NCBI RefSeq assembly: GCF_055900595.2
Contig: NZ_CM148325.1
DNA: 64,000 bases
Strand: one strand, 5' to 3'
Under the pieces are notes generated by a model. The model ran no database searches. It was given only the letters and a program-made list of their open reading frames with translations, and had not been told where the DNA came from. Position 1 is the first letter of the stretch. Each line of letters starts with the position of its first letter. Of the stretch, positions 30,166 through 41,495 are shown piece after piece. The translations under genes and the position numbers were made by a program.

Positions 30166-30241
30166 TTTAACGTGACACTGTCACTTAAATACTGTGATTT
30201 CAGCTACGATTCCGGGAGATTCCTTCCTTAACTTCCCCTCT

Positions 30242-30268
30242 TGCACCAAAACTGCACTACGCTGCACA
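30242..30268 (+). promoter_or_regulatory. Phased TGCAC repeats, possible NtrC enhancer sites
   Basis: TGCACC, TGCACT and TGCACA at roughly 10-11 bp spacing, about 70-100 bp upstream of the sigma54-like promoter; resemble NtrC half-sites but not a full consensus. Confidence 0.3.
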
Positions 30269-30329
30269 AATGTTGATCAAAAGTTAAAAAATATAACTTT
30301 AAGCCAGCATTCTGGCGCTTATCCCGGCA

Positions 30330-30346
30330 TGGCATGAGATCTGCAT
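30330..30346 (+). promoter_or_regulatory. Candidate sigma54 (-24/-12) promoter for the ddp operon
   Basis: TGGCATG-agat-CTGCAT has GG and GC 12 nt apart, matching TGGCACG-N4-TTGCW; predicted transcription start about 30 nt before the ddpX ATG. Confidence 0.5.
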
Positions 30347-30389
30347 AAGCGGAAAGCGCAGCAATTTTTGTCTTATACAGGAACCGTTT

Positions 30390-30971
30390 ATGTCGGATAC
30401 CATCGAACTGGTTGATTTAGCCGTGATCTTCCCTGATCTGGAGATCGAATTGAAATACGCCTGCGCTGATAACATCACGGGTAAAGCTATTTATCAGCAA
30501 GCGCGTTGTCTGTTACACAAGGATGCGATTACCGCGCTGGCGAAAAGTATCAGTATCGCCCAGCTGTCAGGCTTACAACTGGTGATTTACGATGCGTATC
30601 GCCCACAACAAGCACAGGCGATGTTGTGGCAAACCTGCCCAGACCCGCAATATGTTGTTGATGTGACGGTCGGTTCTAATCACAGCCGTGGCACCGCGAT
30701 CGACCTGACGCTTCGTGATGAGCACGGGAACATCCTCGATATGGGCGCAGAGTTCGATGAAATGCACGAACGTTCCCATGCTTACCATCCTTCCGTCCCG
30801 CCCGCCGCTCAGCGCAATCGGCTGTTGCTGAATGCGATTATGACTGGCGGTGGCTTTGTCGGTATCCCGAGCGAATGGTGGCACTTCGAATTACCCCAGG
30901 CAGCAAGTTACCCACTACTCGCTGATCAATTCACCTGTTTTATATCCCCTGGCACACAGCACGCCAGTTAA
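30390..30971 (+). CDS. ddpX: D-Ala-D-Ala dipeptidase (VanX-like)
   Basis: 193 aa ORF with zinc-peptidase motifs (…SNHSRGTAIDLTL…, …EWWHFEL…). Confidence 0.9.
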   Translation: MSDTIELVDLAVIFPDLEIELKYACADNITGKAIYQQARCLLHKDAITALAKSISIAQLSGLQLVIYDAYRPQQAQAMLWQTCPDPQYVVDVTVGSNHSRGTAIDLTLRDEHGNILDMGAEFDEMHERSHAYHPSVPPAAQRNRLLLNAIMTGGGFVGIPSEWWHFELPQAASYPLLADQFTCFISPGTQHAS

Positions 30972-30984
30972 TCAGGAAACTGTC

Positions 30985-32535
30985 ATGAAGAGATCGATTT
31001 CGTTTCGTCCTACATTGCTCGCGATCGTCCTTGCCACAACAATGCCGGTTGCGCACGCCGCCGTACCGAAAGATATGCTGGTGATCGGTAAAGCTGCCGA
31101 CCCACAAACCCTCGACCCGGCGGTAACAATTGATAATAACGACTGGACAGTGACCTACCCGTCTTATCAGCGACTGGTTCAGTACAAAACGGACGGTGAT
31201 AAAGGCTCAACAGACGTTGAAGGCGATCTGGCGAGTAGCTGGAAAGCGTCTGACGATCAAAAAGAGTGGACGTTCACCCTGAAGGACAATGCTAAATTTG
31301 CCGATGGCACACCCGTCACTGCCGAAGCAGTAAAACTCTCTTTTGAGCGGTTACTAAAAATCGGTCAGGGGCCAGCAGAAGCATTTCCCAAAGATTTAAA
31401 GATTGATGCTCCCGACGAACATACGGTGAGGTTTACCCTTAGCCAGCCATTCGCACCGTTCCTCTACACGCTGGCGAATGACGGTGCATCCATTATCAAT
31501 CCGGCGGTCTTAAAAGAACATGCGGCCGATGATGCCCGTGGTTTCCTCGCGCAAAATACCGCTGGCTCCGGACCGTTTATGCTGAAAAGCTGGCAAAAAG
31601 GTCAGCAATTAGTTCTGGTGCCAAATCCGCATTACCCCGGCAATAAACCGAACTTCAAACGGGTATCGGTAAAAATTATCGGTGAAAGTGCCTCCCGTCG
31701 CCTGCAGCTCTCCCGTGGCGACATTGATATTGCCGATGCGCTGCCGGTGGATCAACTCAACGCACTGAAGCAGGAAAACAAAGTCAAAGTGGCAGAGTAT
31801 CCGTCACTGCGCGTCACCTATCTGTATCTCAATAACAGCAAAGCGCCACTTAATCAGGCGGATCTGCGTCGGGCCATTTCCTGGTCTACCGATTATCAGG
31901 GTATGGTTAACGGCATTCTGAGTGGTAACGGAAAACAAATGCGCGGCCCGATTCCGGAAGGCATGTGGGGATACGATGCGACGGCAATGCAATACAACCA
32001 TGACGAAACGAAAGCCAAAGCCGAATGGGATAAAGTGACGAGCAAACCCACCAGCCTGACGTTTCTCTACTCCGATAACGACCCGAACTGGGAACCTATT
32101 GCTCTGGCAACACAATCCAGCCTCAACAAGCTGGGCATCAATGTGAAGCTGGAAAAGCTGGCGAACGCCACCATGCGCGACAGAGTAGGTAAAGGTGATT
32201 ACGACATCGCGATTGGCAACTGGAGTCCGGATTTTGCCGACCCGTATATGTTTATGAATTACTGGTTTGAGTCCGACAAAAAAGGTCTGCCGGGTAACCG
32301 CTCGTTCTATGAAAACAGTGAGGTCGATAAGCTACTGCGCAATGCGCTAGCGACCACCGACCAGACGCAGCGTACCCGGGACTACCAGCAGGCACAGAAA
32401 ATCGTCATTGATGACGCTGCTTATGTGTACCTGTTCCAGAAAAACTACCAACTGGCGATGAACAAAGAGGTGAAAGGCTTTGTGTTCAATCCCATGCTGG
32501 AACAGATCTTCAATATCAATACCATGAGTAAATAA
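30985..32535 (+). CDS. ddpA: Periplasmic D,D-dipeptide-binding protein
   Basis: ORF 30850-32535; start at ATG 30985 gives signal peptide MKRSISFRPTLLAIVLATTMPVAHA; family-5 solute-binding fold. Confidence 0.9.
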   Translation: MKRSISFRPTLLAIVLATTMPVAHAAVPKDMLVIGKAADPQTLDPAVTIDNNDWTVTYPSYQRLVQYKTDGDKGSTDVEGDLASSWKASDDQKEWTFTLKDNAKFADGTPVTAEAVKLSFERLLKIGQGPAEAFPKDLKIDAPDEHTVRFTLSQPFAPFLYTLANDGASIINPAVLKEHAADDARGFLAQNTAGSGPFMLKSWQKGQQLVLVPNPHYPGNKPNFKRVSVKIIGESASRRLQLSRGDIDIADALPVDQLNALKQENKVKVAEYPSLRVTYLYLNNSKAPLNQADLRRAISWSTDYQGMVNGILSGNGKQMRGPIPEGMWGYDATAMQYNHDETKAKAEWDKVTSKPTSLTFLYSDNDPNWEPIALATQSSLNKLGINVKLEKLANATMRDRVGKGDYDIAIGNWSPDFADPYMFMNYWFESDKKGLPGNRSFYENSEVDKLLRNALATTDQTQRTRDYQQAQKIVIDDAAYVYLFQKNYQLAMNKEVKGFVFNPMLEQIFNINTMSK

Positions 32536-32536
32536 C

Positions 32537-33559
32537 GTGACCTTCTGGAGTATTTTACGCCAACGCTGCTGGGGGCTGGTGCTCGTGGTGGCGGGCGTCT
32601 GTGTGATTACGTTTATTATCTCGCACCTGATCCCCGGCGACCCGGCGCGGTTACTGGCGGGTGACCGCGCCAGCGATGCTATCGTGGATAATATTCGCCA
32701 GCAACTGGGACTGGACCAGCCACTGTACGTACAGTTTTACCGCTACGTCAGCGACCTGTTTCAGGGTGACCTGGGAACATCCATTCGTACCGGGCGTCCG
32801 GTGCTGGAAGAGTTGCGCATATTTTTCCCGGCGACGCTGGAACTGGCATTTTGCGCTCTGCTGCTGGCACTCCTGGTTGGTATCCCGCTGGGCATACTCT
32901 CTGCAGTCTGGCGAAATCGCTGGCTGGATCATCTGGTGCGAATAATGGCCATTACCGGAATCTCCACACCTGCGTTCTGGCTTGGGCTGGGCGTCATTGT
33001 GCTGTTTTATGGTCATCTGCAAATTCTTCCCGGCGGCGGAAGGCTTGATGACTGGCTGGATCCACCAACGCACGTTACCGGCTTTTATCTGCTCGATGCG
33101 CTGCTTGAAGGCAACGGTGAAGTCTTCTTCAATGCGCTGCAACATCTCATCTTACCGGCATTAACGCTGGCGTTCGTTCACCTGGGGATTGTCGCTCGCC
33201 AGATCCGCTCAGCTATGCTGGAACAATTGAGTGAAGACTACATTCGTACCGCCCGGGCCAGCGGCTTGCCCGGCTGGTATATCGTTTTATGTTACGCGCT
33301 ACCCAATGCGTTGATCCCCTCGATTACCGTATTGGGGCTGGCGCTGGGCGATTTGTTGTATGGCGCAGTGCTCACCGAAACCGTTTTTGCCTGGCCTGGA
33401 ATGGGTGCATGGGTAGTAACATCAATACAGGCGCTCGACTTCCCGGCAGTGATGGGCTTTGCCGTCGTGGTTTCATTTGCTTATGTGCTGGTCAACCTGG
33501 TGGTGGATTTGCTCTATTTGTGGATTGATCCGCGTATCGGACGTGGAGGTGATGAATGA
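32537..33559 (+). CDS. ddpB: Dipeptide ABC transporter permease
   Basis: 340 aa ORF with GTG start 2 nt after the ddpA stop; polytopic membrane protein of the DppB/OppB type. Confidence 0.9.
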   Translation: MTFWSILRQRCWGLVLVVAGVCVITFIISHLIPGDPARLLAGDRASDAIVDNIRQQLGLDQPLYVQFYRYVSDLFQGDLGTSIRTGRPVLEELRIFFPATLELAFCALLLALLVGIPLGILSAVWRNRWLDHLVRIMAITGISTPAFWLGLGVIVLFYGHLQILPGGGRLDDWLDPPTHVTGFYLLDALLEGNGEVFFNALQHLILPALTLAFVHLGIVARQIRSAMLEQLSEDYIRTARASGLPGWYIVLCYALPNALIPSITVLGLALGDLLYGAVLTETVFAWPGMGAWVVTSIQALDFPAVMGFAVVVSFAYVLVNLVVDLLYLWIDPRIGRGGDE

Positions 33560-34452
33560 TGCTAAGCGAGGAAACGTCCGTCGTACGCCCACCAAAACAA
33601 ACGCGATTTAACGGTGCAAAACTGGTATGGATGCTGAAAGGCAGTCCGCTCACCGTGACCGGCGCAGTCATCATTGTATTAATGCTACTGATGATGATTT
33701 TTTCACCGTGGCTGGCGACGCATGATCCCAACGCCATTGATTTAACTGCCCGCCTTTTGCCGCCTTCTGCGGCGCACTGGTTTGGCACCGATGAAGTGGG
33801 ACGCGATCTGTTTAGCCGCGTACTGGTCGGCAGTCAGCAATCAATTCTCGCCGGATTAGTGGTGGTCGCCATTGCGGGTATGATGGGTTCGCTACTCGGG
33901 TGTCTATCCGGTGTGCTTGGCGGCCGCGCAGACGCGATCATCATGCGCATCATGGACATTATGCTGTCGATTCCTTCGCTGGTGCTGACAATGGCGCTGG
34001 CTGCCGCACTTGGACCGAGTTTGTTTAACGCCATGCTGGCGATTGCTATCGTGCGTATCCCGTTTTATGTGCGCCTGGCGCGGGGGCAAACATTAGTTGT
34101 TCGCCAGTACACTTACGTTCAGGCGGCGAAAACCTTTGGTGCGTCGCGTTGGCATCTGATCAACTGGCATATTTTACGTAACTCCCTGCCGCCGCTGATT
34201 GTGCAGGCATCGCTGGATATTGGTAGCGCGATTTTAATGGCCGCCACGTTGGGATTTATTGGCCTGGGTGCTCAACAACCGAGTGCTGAATGGGGGGCGA
34301 TGGTGGCGAATGGCCGCAACTATGTGCTCGATCAATGGTGGTATTGCGCATTTCCGGGGGCAGCGATTTTGCTTACCGCCGTCGGGTTCAATCTCTTTGG
34401 TGATGGTATTCGCGATCTGCTTGACCCGAAAGCAGGAGGAAAGCAGTCATGA
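33556..34452 (+). CDS. ddpC: Dipeptide ABC transporter permease
   Basis: 298 aa ORF overlapping the ddpB stop by 4 nt; DppC/OppC-type membrane protein. Confidence 0.9.
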   Translation: MMLSEETSVVRPPKQTRFNGAKLVWMLKGSPLTVTGAVIIVLMLLMMIFSPWLATHDPNAIDLTARLLPPSAAHWFGTDEVGRDLFSRVLVGSQQSILAGLVVVAIAGMMGSLLGCLSGVLGGRADAIIMRIMDIMLSIPSLVLTMALAAALGPSLFNAMLAIAIVRIPFYVRLARGQTLVVRQYTYVQAAKTFGASRWHLINWHILRNSLPPLIVQASLDIGSAILMAATLGFIGLGAQQPSAEWGAMVANGRNYVLDQWWYCAFPGAAILLTAVGFNLFGDGIRDLLDPKAGGKQS

Positions 34453-35435
34453 CCCAACCCGTTCTGGACATTCAACAGCTGCATTTGAGTTTCTCCGGTT
34501 TTAACGGCGACGTTCACGCGCTCAACAATGTGTCATTGAAAATCAACCGCGGTGAAATTGTCGGTCTGGTGGGAGAATCCGGCTCGGGTAAATCAGTCAC
34601 TGCAATGTTGATTATGCGTCTGTTACCGACGGGTAGTTATTGCGTACATCGGGGACATATTTCACTGCTGGGAGAAGATGCTCTTAACGCTCGGGAAAAA
34701 CAGCTTCGTCAGTGGCGCGGCGCACGAGTGGCGATGATCTTTCAGGAACCGATGACCGCCCTAAATCCGACACGTCGAATAGGTCTTCAGATGATGGACG
34801 TGATCCGCCATCATCAACCAATAAGTCGTAGGGAAGCCAGAGCTAAAGCGATTGCCCTGCTGGAAGAGATGCAAATCCCGGATGCCGTGGAAGTTATGTC
34901 GCGCTATCCGTTTGAGCTTTCAGGTGGTATGCGCCAGCGGGTAATGATTGCGCTGGCATTCTCCTGCGAGCCGCAATTGATTATTGCCGACGAACCGACT
35001 ACGGCGCTGGACGTCACGGTACAGTTGCAGGTACTGCGTCTGCTTAAACATAAAGCCCGCGCCAGTGGAACTGCGGTACTGTTCATCAGCCATGATATGG
35101 CCGTGGTGTCGCAACTGTGCGATAGCGTTTACGTGATGTATGCCGGAAGCGTGATCGAGAGCGGCATGACGGCAGACGTTATCCATCATCCCCAGCATCC
35201 GTATACCATTGGTTTGCTGCAATGCGCACCGGAACATGGAATACCACGCCAGCCATTACCCGCCATTCCAGGGACGGTACCAAACCTCACCCATTTGCCT
35301 GACGGCTGCGCTTTTCGCGATCGTTGCTATGCGGCAGGTACACAGTGTGAAAACGTCCCGGCGCTGACAGCGTGTGGTGACAACAACCACCGCTGCGCCT
35401 GTTGGTATCCTCAGCAGGAGGTCATTAGTGTCTGA
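34449..35435 (+). CDS. ddpD: Dipeptide ABC transporter ATPase
   Basis: 328 aa ORF; Walker A GESGSGKS and signature LSGGMRQR; overlaps ddpC by 4 nt. Confidence 0.9.
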   Translation: MTQPVLDIQQLHLSFSGFNGDVHALNNVSLKINRGEIVGLVGESGSGKSVTAMLIMRLLPTGSYCVHRGHISLLGEDALNAREKQLRQWRGARVAMIFQEPMTALNPTRRIGLQMMDVIRHHQPISRREARAKAIALLEEMQIPDAVEVMSRYPFELSGGMRQRVMIALAFSCEPQLIIADEPTTALDVTVQLQVLRLLKHKARASGTAVLFISHDMAVVSQLCDSVYVMYAGSVIESGMTADVIHHPQHPYTIGLLQCAPEHGIPRQPLPAIPGTVPNLTHLPDGCAFRDRCYAAGTQCENVPALTACGDNNHRCACWYPQQEVISV

Positions 35436-36354
35436 CACGTTATTAACGTTACGCGACGTCCATATCAATTTCCCGGCCCGAAAAAACTGGCTTGGTAAAA
35501 CTACGGAACATGTTCATGCCATCAATGGTATTGATTTACAGATCCGTCGTGGTGAAACCTTAGGGATCGTCGGTGAGTCAGGCTGCGGCAAAAGCACCCT
35601 CGCACAGCTTTTAATGGGTATGCTGCAACCGAGCCACGGGCAGTACATCCGTTCAGGATCACAACGCATTATGCAGATGGTGTTTCAGGACCCGCTCTCT
35701 TCGCTTAATCCGCGCTTACCGGTGTGGCGCATCATCACGGAACCGCTCTGGATTGCTAAGCGTAGTAGTGAACAACAGCGGCGAGCGTTGGCAGAGGAGC
35801 TGGCTGTGCAGGTGGGTATTCGTCCGGAGTATCTCGACCGCTTGCCTCATGCGTTCTCAGGCGGGCAGCGGCAACGTATCGCCATTGCCAGAGCACTCTC
35901 TTCGCAGCCTGACGTGATTGTGCTTGATGAACCCACCTCGGCGCTGGATATCTCCGTCCAGGCGCAGATCCTCAATTTACTGGTAACGCTACAGGAAAAT
36001 CGCGGGCTGACTTATGTGCTGATTTCACACAATGTCTCGGTGATTCGTCATATGAGCGATCGGGTAGCGGTGATGTATCTCGGACAGATTGTGGAACTGG
36101 GCGACGCGCAGCAGGTGCTCTCTACTCCGGCACATCCATACACCCGATTATTGCTGGATTCCCTGCCCGCCATTGATAAACCGCTGGAGGAAGAATGGGC
36201 ATTGCGTAAAACGGAACTACCAGGAAACCGCACGTTGCCGCCGGGCTGTTTTTTCCGCGAACGTTGCCCCCTGGCAACCAGCGGATGTGAAGTTCGGCAA
36301 TCATTCACGACGCGGGAGGACGGACGTGAGATCAGGTGCTGGCGGGCGCTGTAG
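35428..36354 (+). CDS. ddpF: Dipeptide ABC transporter ATPase
   Basis: ORF 35374-36354; start placed at GTG 35428 (VSDTLLTLRDV…), overlapping the ddpD stop; Walker A GESGCGKST and signature FSGGQRQR. Confidence 0.85.
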   Translation: MSDTLLTLRDVHINFPARKNWLGKTTEHVHAINGIDLQIRRGETLGIVGESGCGKSTLAQLLMGMLQPSHGQYIRSGSQRIMQMVFQDPLSSLNPRLPVWRIITEPLWIAKRSSEQQRRALAEELAVQVGIRPEYLDRLPHAFSGGQRQRIAIARALSSQPDVIVLDEPTSALDISVQAQILNLLVTLQENRGLTYVLISHNVSVIRHMSDRVAVMYLGQIVELGDAQQVLSTPAHPYTRLLLDSLPAIDKPLEEEWALRKTELPGNRTLPPGCFFRERCPLATSGCEVRQSFTTREDGREIRCWRAL

Positions 36355-36368
36355 AGACGCTAACAACG

Positions 36369-36405
36369 CATCAGGCAATCACGCGCCTGACGCGTCATCC
36401 GGCAA
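36369..36405. repeat. REP-like palindromic element between convergent ddpF and osmC
   Basis: GCATCAGGCAATCACGCGCCTGACGCGTCATCCGGCA resembles the E. coli REP family (GCCKGATGCG…TTATCMGGC) and has an internal TGACGCGTCA palindrome. Confidence 0.4.
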
Positions 36406-36409
36406 CGCT

Positions 36410-36841
36410 TTACGATTTCAACTGGTAATCAAGCGTAATTTCAGCTTTCAGTACCTGAGAAACCGGGCATCCTGCTTTTGCTTTCTGGATAATGCCGTCA
36501 AAAGTAGAGGCATCAATACCCGGCACCGCAACTTCGCTCTTCAGTGCGATTTTAGTAATCGCAAACCCGGCATCCACTTTATCCAGCGAGACATCGGCGG
36601 TGGTATCAATCGATGTGGGCGTGAATCCTGCTTCCCCCAGCATTAATGAAAGCGCCATTGAGAAACATGCTGCATGCGCCGCGCCAATCAGTTCTTCAGG
36701 GTTAGTTCCTTTTTCGCCTTCAAAACGCGTATTAAATCCATACGGCTGTTGGTTCAGCACGCCGCTCTCGGTGGATACGGTTCCCTTCCCGCGTTTGATA
36801 TCGCCTTCCCAGTGTGCCTGACCTTTCTTATGGATTGTCAT
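36410..36841 (-). CDS. osmC: Osmotically inducible peroxiredoxin OsmC
   Basis: 143 aa ORF MTIHKKGQAHWEGDIKRGKGTVSTESGV…, recognised as OsmC. Confidence 0.95.
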   Translation of the reverse strand: MTIHKKGQAHWEGDIKRGKGTVSTESGVLNQQPYGFNTRFEGEKGTNPEELIGAAHAACFSMALSLMLGEAGFTPTSIDTTADVSLDKVDAGFAITKIALKSEVAVPGIDASTFDGIIQKAKAGCPVSQVLKAEITLDYQLKS

Positions 36842-37185
36842 TGTTGCTCTCCTGTGGGCTTAAAAAGGAAATTATAGACTACGTGAGAAACAGCACGAGG
36901 ATAAGCAGGATATTCCGAATAGAATCCGGCGAAAATATTATCTATGTACTTAAATAAAATTCCCACAATAGATAACCGGGAATATATAACTCAAGAGATA
37001 TTGCATCAATATTAATCGGATCATACCAATCACAATCCCTATGAATATCATGAAGTTAAAATATAAAAATCATCAACCAGGACTAATCTTAACAACGAAG
37101 CGGCAAATATTTGCCATGCTGAATGTGCTTTATAAATCTGCGATCCGTAGCAGACACCATAAATACACAGACACGGAGAATCACT

Positions 37186-37401
37186 ATGTTTACTTATTAT
37201 CAGGCAGAAAATTCAACAGCAGAACCCGCTCTGGTTAATGCCATTGAGCAAGGCCTTCGGGCAGAACACGGTGTTGTCACTGAAGATGACATTCTCATGG
37301 AGCTGACCAAATGGGTGGAAGCTTCTGATAACGACATCCTCAGTGATATCTACCAGCAAACGATCAATTATGTGGTCAGTGGCCAGCACCCTACGCTTTA
37401 A
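37186..37401 (+). CDS. bdm: Biofilm-dependent modulation protein
   Basis: ORF 37123-37401; start at ATG 37186 gives the 71 aa protein MFTYYQAENSTAEPALVNAIEQ…. Confidence 0.85.
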   Translation: MFTYYQAENSTAEPALVNAIEQGLRAEHGVVTEDDILMELTKWVEASDNDILSDIYQQTINYVVSGQHPTL

Positions 37402-41387: not shown

Positions 41388-41395
41388 ATAAATAT

Positions 41396-41419
41396 CCTCC
41401 GGCATAGCCGGAGGTTTTT
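41396..41419 (+). terminator. Hairpin with T-run after yddM; terminator or IS200 end structure
   Basis: CCTCCGG-catagc-CCGGAGG followed by TTTTT. Confidence 0.5.
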
Positions 41420-41495
41420 CAAATGCGCCTGTAAGGCTCTGTTACCAGCCGCGCCCTAACAGGCGCATACGATCTGACATTTGCATTCAACTTCG

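Follow-up and report, generated by a model that had tools for sequence, protein, structure and literature searches.

The gap between the convergent genes ddpF and osmC of E. coli contains a single-copy palindrome that appears to be a relic of REP elements rather than a functional member of the REP family. We consider it fairly likely that two decayed REP units lying in the same orientation together make one hairpin that sets the 3' end of osmC mRNA and protects it, acting much as a REP would. The sequence analyzed here, a 64-kb stretch of DNA referred to as the window, is from a non-K-12 strain of E. coli that shares 100% identity with strain Z0117EC0005 and ~94% with K-12 over the region. The ddpF gene ends on the plus strand with a TAG stop codon at 36352-36354 and osmC ends on the minus strand with a stop codon at 36410-36412, bearing out the convergent arrangement described in the initial annotation. 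The two genes are separated by 55 bp (36355-36409), i.e., one fewer than the 56 bp first reported. In E. coli strain 005008 (L093, 553-630), a 17-bp tandem duplication, GCTGTAGAGATGCTAAC, equivalent to window positions 36348-36364, includes the ddpF stop codon and expands the gap from 55 to 72 bp, leaving the hairpin untouched.

The sole substantial inverted repeat of the gap pairs positions 36366-36376 with 36385-36395 around an 8-nt loop (36377-36384). Its arms, ACGCATCAGGC and GCCTGACGCGT, are complementary at 10 of 11 positions, and since the single mismatch is A.C when read from the plus strand but becomes a G.U pair when read from the minus strand, the strength of the fold differs between the two transcripts. 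In the osmC sense, the core hairpin is a perfect helix with one G.U pair (-19.8 kcal/mol) and its 11-bp stem lengthens to 16 bp through G.U pairs, whereas in the ddpF sense it carries the A.C mismatch (-15.6 kcal/mol). When the RNA of the whole gap was folded, energies of -27.6 kcal/mol (z = -3.7) and -18.7 kcal/mol (z = -2.7) were obtained for the osmC and ddpF senses, respectively. The 64-kb window has 17 loci with inverted repeats of comparable quality, as compared to 1-3 in Markov-1 simulations, and ~0.002 would be expected in any given 55-bp gap. Considering this excess and the z scores of the folds, the palindrome is more than a chance occurrence. A palindrome had initially been placed at 36369-36405; its presence was confirmed but its true span is 36366-36395, so that the earlier interval omits 3 nt of the left arm and overshoots the right arm by 10 nt. 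The overshoot takes in a second REP-type half-site, GTCATCCGGCAA.

REPs of E. coli belong to types y, z1, and z2, are 29-37 nt long, form an imperfect palindrome directly after a GTAG tetranucleotide, share a conserved AA/GC bulge and lower stem, and are present in hundreds of copies per genome (PMC8266576; 2026 REP preprint). The REP count of strain MG1655 is 697 PUs, and ~60% of REPs sit between convergent genes. In a BIME, a REP and an iREP are arranged in alternating orientation with L or S linkers between them (PMC3333891). For comparison with the focal hairpin, 41 canonical REP units were collected from ~250 kb of K-12 sequence and the three consensus sequences were confirmed; GTAG abuts 34 of these 41 units. 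In contrast, neither GTAG nor CTAC abuts the ddpF-osmC hairpin on either strand. Directly 5' of the hairpin, the plus strand reads TAACA and the minus strand GGATG, and the closest GTAG (36351-36354) lies 11 nt upstream, overlapping the ddpF stop codon. Neither the AA/GC bulge nor a 2x2 internal loop is present in the focal stem. Moreover, in the lower stem of a REP, GCCKGAT...ATCMGGC, the GCC/GGC ends form the base of the hairpin, while the focal hairpin is inverted and has GGC/GCC beside the loop. When the whole window was searched with a strict REP hairpin pattern, 61389-61413 was the sole match and the ddpF-osmC gap was not matched, and Rfam covariance models run over 36000-37300 (E<=10) returned nothing relevant. 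The difference in copy number was equally clear: blastn (E<=10) against 5,180 E. coli genomes located the 55-bp gap at a median of one place per genome (maximum of two), as compared to at least 40 places per genome for a control REP from the window (61380-61434). By any structural test, then, the hairpin is neither a canonical REP nor a BIME. Since both the GTAG and the bulge are lacking, TnpA_REP would be predicted to have no activity on it.

The palindrome nevertheless appears to be REP-derived, considering a match to a REP profile, a REP-specific 11-mer, and a canonical REP at the orthologous site in Citrobacter. The profile, which was built solely from K-12 regions unrelated to the window, matched 36355-36377 on the plus strand with borderline significance (nhmmer; E = 0.035, score 10.4), the fourth best match in the window after both halves of the BIME between yddE and nhoA and a decayed BIME at 53668-53691. 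We refer to this segment (GACGC...CGCATCAGGCAA) as unit A. The nhmmer match, the 11-mer, and a consensus alignment together suggest that it is a 5'-truncated z-type REP remnant; it aligns to profile positions 13-37 only and its 5' arm, GCCTGATAA, is missing, with GTAG at 36351-36354. Its intact precursor is predicted to have been GTAGGCCTGATAAGACGC...CGCATCAGGCAAT. In 264 kb of E. coli sequence, 19 copies of the 11-mer, CGCATCAGGCA, are present where ~0.13 would be expected, and the other 18 copies all lie in REPs that are canonical or slightly degenerate. When aligned to the REP consensus, the focal gap scored 25 at best, as compared to 46-60 for true REPs; a score of 25 was reached by 10 of 1,589 background windows (top 0.6%), most of them real REPs.

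The second segment, unit B (36385-36404, plus strand; GCC---TGACGCGTCATCCGGC), gave no match to the REP profile with nhmmer. Comparison to Citrobacter and to an E. coli allele that carries a 3-hydroxybutyrate dehydrogenase (bdh) gene suggests that it is a collapsed y-type REP remnant. It would derive from a palindrome, GCCGGATGACGCGTCATCCGGC, that is intact in the bdh allele and orthologous to short REPs of Citrobacter, and its 5' arm has a 3-nt deletion. Read along the plus strand, each unit finishes with ATCMGGCAA, i.e., they have the same orientation, and they lie 7 bp apart; the alternating REP/iREP layout is therefore absent. The palindrome is thus a chimera, formed by the 3' arm of unit A and the damaged 5' part of unit B. 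The initial annotation had described a REP-like palindromic unit and had named a search against REP families, with failure to match any of them as the refuting outcome. The description holds for ancestry and fails for the unit itself, a chimera of two remnants that departs from REPs in structure and copy number, and the search gave a divided answer that neither cleanly refutes nor cleanly spares the description, with unit A but not unit B matched by the profile and a consensus score below that of true REPs yet in the top 0.6% of background.

Like REPs of E. coli, the focal element is extragenic, GC-rich, located between convergent genes, and built from REP arm motifs; it would share descent with a REP that is still canonical at the orthologous position in Citrobacter; and an mRNA 3' end maps to its hairpin. 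Unlike them, it is single-copy and has no adjacent GTAG or AA/GC bulge, only the 3' two-thirds of one of its units fits the REP profile, and its arms come from two adjoining decayed units, so that the GCC/GGC ends point to the loop. It resembles BIME-1 and BIME-2 elements (e.g., REP118) in having two REP-type units adjoining within one intergenic gap and differs from them in that both units are truncated, share one orientation only 7 bp apart, and have no recognizable L or S linker between them.

In a wider comparison, 80 Enterobacterales loci around osmC were retrieved and 66 loci were folded. The sequence GCCGGATG is found 5-10 nt past the osmC stop codon in all Escherichia and Citrobacter loci. 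In Citrobacter, it is part of a canonical short REP, GCCGGATAAGAC...GTCGCATCCGGC, in which the AA/GC bulge is present, and the short REP of C. portucalensis additionally has GTAG. In other genera, plain GC-rich hairpins followed by T-rich tails occupy this position. A fold that is stable and lies within 60 nt past the osmC stop codon is near-universal in Enterobacterales (minimum free energy of -12 kcal/mol or lower in 63 of 66 loci), and it is built from REP-type arms only in Escherichia and Citrobacter. A count of U tails over the 66 loci was uninformative since folds of the whole region mask the ends of the hairpins.

At least three alleles occur 3' of osmC in E. coli, as judged from coverage classes, from which the following counts were inferred. 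The ddp operon is present in approximately 4,047 of 5,409 genomes. It is absent, with dosP adjacent to osmC, in ~1,130 genomes, or about one in five complete E. coli genomes. In ~230 genomes (~4% of E. coli), its place is taken by a cluster of bdh, GntP permease, and 3-hydroxyacyl-CoA dehydrogenase genes, as in Citrobacter. This cluster is convergent with osmC (L092, 2489-2522, of E. coli R32_14_1F; L006; Citrobacter L008-L021) and is separated from it by the perfect 22-nt palindrome GCCGGATGACGCGTCATCCGGC; in the ddp alleles, GGA is missing from one arm of this palindrome, which is fused to a different sequence. The gap is thus pieced together from three segments. The segment adjoining osmC (36388-36409) is common to the ddp-containing, ddp-less, and bdh alleles, the middle segment (36366-36387) is common to the ddp-containing and ddp-less alleles only, and the spacer from the ddpF stop codon to the hairpin (36355-36365) is found only where ddp is present. 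The hairpin spans the junction of the first two segments (~36385-36388, inside its right arm), and the base of its left arm coincides with the other junction (36365/36366).

The left edge of the middle segment is also the breakpoint of the ddp deletion. Relative to the ddp-less allele (L003, 3856-4044), the window positions 30209-36365 (ddpXABCDF) are gone, with breakpoints at ~30208 and exactly at 36365/36366. Since that allele keeps a diverged, ~62-nt ddpF fragment, equivalent to 35863-35924 (the signature and Walker-B region) and fused to 36366, it is a deletion derivative. Two other histories were considered and rejected. The ddp-deleted allele does not carry a complete ancestral REP of which the window keeps the right half, as the left half of this apparent REP is the diverged ddpF coding fragment; nor was the ddp operon inserted into a REP, considering that there is no REP at the left breakpoint (~30208) and that the ddp-less allele is a deletion derivative. 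The ddpF codons for QPDV in the Walker-B region (CAGCCTGATGTG; 35907-35916) mimic the 5' arm of a REP, and in the ddp-deleted allele CAGCCTGATGTG completes a hairpin that looks like a REP. The window contains 17-19 matches to the REP 7-mer half-site patterns, mostly chance matches inside genes, and half-sites alone are therefore poor evidence of a REP.

In E. coli, the osmC 3' flank thus varies among three alleles, with the palindrome as the site of the breakpoints. The location of two independent rearrangement breakpoints at this one element is its only mildly unusual aspect and fits the role of BIMEs in intergenic polymorphism, of which they are an established source according to a reference cited in PMC3333891. 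The meeting of three alleles within 55 bp, with junctions at 36365/36366 and ~36385-36388, would point to deletion and replacement promoted by the hairpin or by REP sequence. We regard it as rather improbable, however, that the palindrome is more than a passive relic in this respect, i.e., a recurrent breakpoint for turnover of gene cassettes 3' of osmC. A further arrangement was seen in strain E69 (L005), in which osmC and dosP are separated by a 215-aa ORF.

Conservation of the stem was assessed in 14 alleles, sampled so that every identity level in a spread listing of 5,180 matching genomes was represented. None of the 22 stem positions varied, as compared to eight of 33 loop or flank positions. 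Four of these variable sites are in the loop (36378, 36381, 36382, and 36383), which is hypervariable with half of its eight positions polymorphic, and four are in the flanks (36358, 36399, 36406, and 36407). The chance of all eight variable sites missing the stem is small (P ~0.011), although invariance of the stem could alternatively result from a hypermutable loop. Since no compensatory stem changes were found among the 14 alleles, the pattern is one of conservation and not of covariation.

Published Term-seq data place the 3' end of osmC mRNA at this stem. In K-12, "primary" osmC 3' ends were mapped to 1557105 in LB at OD 2.0 (1,579 reads) and to 1557103 in M63 (2,106 reads) (Adams et al., 2021; PMC7815308, supplementary file 1), and the two conditions with osmC 3' ends are those in which osmC was expressed. 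The meaning of the sequence column in that table was verified against thrL. The equivalent positions in the window are 36361 and 36363 on the minus strand, i.e., 3-5 nt past the core stem and level with the end of the stem in its extended, 16-bp form; folding energies of -22.5 and -24.5 kcal/mol were obtained for transcripts with these ends. These data are from K-12, whose hairpin has arms identical to those in the window and differs at one loop and two flank positions. A Rho termination region was also reported at K-12 1557696 on the plus strand, antisense in ddpF (Rho score of 7.8, P = 4.9e-11; PMC7815308, supplementary file 2). It corresponds to approximately position 35770 on the minus strand of the window, ~590 nt beyond the osmC 3' end, with the caveat that Rho scores are based on 800-nt windows. 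Considering this Rho-dependent region downstream of the hairpin, osmC transcription likely reads through the hairpin into ddpF antisense. The published K-12 Term-seq list contains no ddpF 3' end.

A scan for terminator and promoter consensus sequences identified no site in the gap on either strand. Neither tail of the hairpin (osmC sense, UGUUAGCG; ddpF sense, CAUCCGGC) amounts to a U tract (at least five U in 8 nt): the osmC-sense tail has three U in its first 5 nt and four in its first 8, while the ddpF-sense tail has one in its first 8. Of the other features of an intrinsic terminator, the GC-rich stem is present, and an RNA 3' end just past the stem is seen for osmC only, in K-12. The element therefore resembles intrinsic bidirectional terminators in that one stable hairpin is shared by two convergent units and a 3' end lies just past its stem, and it differs from them in lacking U tracts on both sides and in the evidence for Rho-dependent termination downstream. 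Stable 3' stem-loops are said to mark the processed ends of Rho-terminated transcripts, and this is the functional class that fits best: the focal hairpin has no U tract, its 3' end is flush with the stem, a Rho region lies downstream, and we identified no difference from the class, to which REP ancestry is added.

We therefore favor a model in which neither unit A nor unit B can be folded as a REP alone, and the 3' arm of unit A would pair with the 5' part of unit B to form a single 11-bp hairpin. In the osmC transcript, this hairpin would set the mature 3' end. Part of osmC transcription would pass the hairpin, and Rho would stop the RNA polymerase run in untranslated ddpF antisense; 3'-to-5' exonucleases would then trim the transcript back until halted at the hairpin. 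A minor share of the ends may come from weak intrinsic termination at the UUGUUA tail. In the ddpF sense, where the A.C mismatch weakens the hairpin, it may serve the poorly expressed ddp operon likewise. According to published work, REPs halt 3'-to-5' exonucleases and also serve as partial Rho-dependent terminators, and the remark in the initial annotation that such elements can stabilize the upstream mRNA fits the osmC 3' ends mapped at the hairpin in K-12. The hairpin lies 10-14 nt past the osmC stop codon, and both stop codons are 10-14 nt from the stem. Hairpins within ~15 nt of a stop codon reportedly can impede terminating ribosomes.

Three other explanations were weighed. If the element were a bona fide REP or BIME, it would be a y, z1, or z2 member recognizable by TnpA_REP and other REP-binding factors. 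The half-sites CGCATCAGGCAA, GTCATCCGGCAA, and GCCTGA on the plus strand, the profile match (E = 0.035), and a location typical of ~60% of REPs are what such an element might show, and a curated REP label at the gap is conceivable, as REP122 of the K-12 annotation may lie there. The blastn result (one place per genome as compared to at least 40 for the window's true REP) is difficult to reconcile with this, as are an alignment limited to model positions 13-37, a consensus score of 25 against 46-60, a hairpin that lacks an abutting GTAG or CTAC and the AA/GC bulge and turns its GCC/GGC ends toward the loop, and units whose shared orientation leaves no REP/iREP pair. This explanation is largely refuted and, in our judgment, exceedingly unlikely.

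The hairpin could instead be a bidirectional intrinsic terminator of osmC and ddpF, with its resemblance to REPs irrelevant. An 11-bp GC-rich stem that closes a loop of 6-8 nt and is flanked by convergent genes would suit such a role, as would osmC 3' ends 3-5 nt past the stem, within UUGUUA, and the T-rich tails that follow the osmC hairpin in other genera. We think it unlikely, albeit with some merit, considering that there is no U tract, that the terminator scan does not flag the hairpin, that the Rho-dependent region downstream implies read-through, and that no ddpF 3' end is among the mapped ends. Lastly, the palindrome could be a functionless scar, a by-product of the joining of REP fragments with which the osmC 3' end coincides incidentally. 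Decay of both REP units, the lack of covariation, and a three-segment mosaic with two breakpoints in or at the edge of the palindrome would all be in keeping with a scar. A scar would not, however, be expected to keep its stem invariant while the loop and flanks vary, to be matched by a stable hairpin directly 3' of osmC in every allele and in every related genus, or to coincide with 3' ends in two conditions; we thus hold it to be quite improbable. A hairpin of REP ancestry that defines the osmC 3' end remains the reading we prefer.

The significance of the element beyond careful annotation is small, and the initial opinion that it is ordinary in E. coli agrees with our analysis, which found an ordinary intergenic feature. 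The gap holds a REP relic without any mobility feature whose hairpin still coincides with a mapped mRNA 3' end, and it illustrates how the label "REP-like", when assigned by eye, can lump together genuine REPs, relics in decay, and half-sites that arise by chance in coding DNA. The element between yddE and nhoA (61389-61465), which had been singled out as the clearer example in the window, is indeed a canonical BIME in which a z1 iREP, TGCCTGATGCGCTTCGCTTATCAGGCCTAC, is joined through a self-complementary linker of 23 bp to a truncated y REP in inverted orientation, GTAGGCGTTTACGCCGCATCCGGC. Its K-12 counterpart is REP118; the z1 iREP, linker, and y REP are arranged head-to-head, and the y unit in the window lacks the CGGATAAG part found in K-12. 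REP118, REP120, and REP123 were placed using the supplement to the 2026 REP preprint. The K-12 RefSeq record lists no REP features anywhere, even at this BIME, and is therefore uninformative either way with respect to the ddpF-osmC gap.

Two other sites in the region are of note. A decayed BIME occupies 53668-53712, which maps to the narU-narZ intergenic region of K-12, and consists of TGCCTGACACGTCTTATCAGGCTAC followed by GTCGCATCCGACAAG (profile E = 0.009); its REP has a collapsed center in the style of unit B of the ddpF-osmC gap. In the fdnI-yddM gap of K-12 (1552041-1552392), two near-identical BIMEs lie 178 bp apart, one of them REP120 and the other probably REP121. In the window, these BIMEs are replaced by ~700 bp of unrelated sequence (41394-42100) that has hairpins of its own at 42064-42129.
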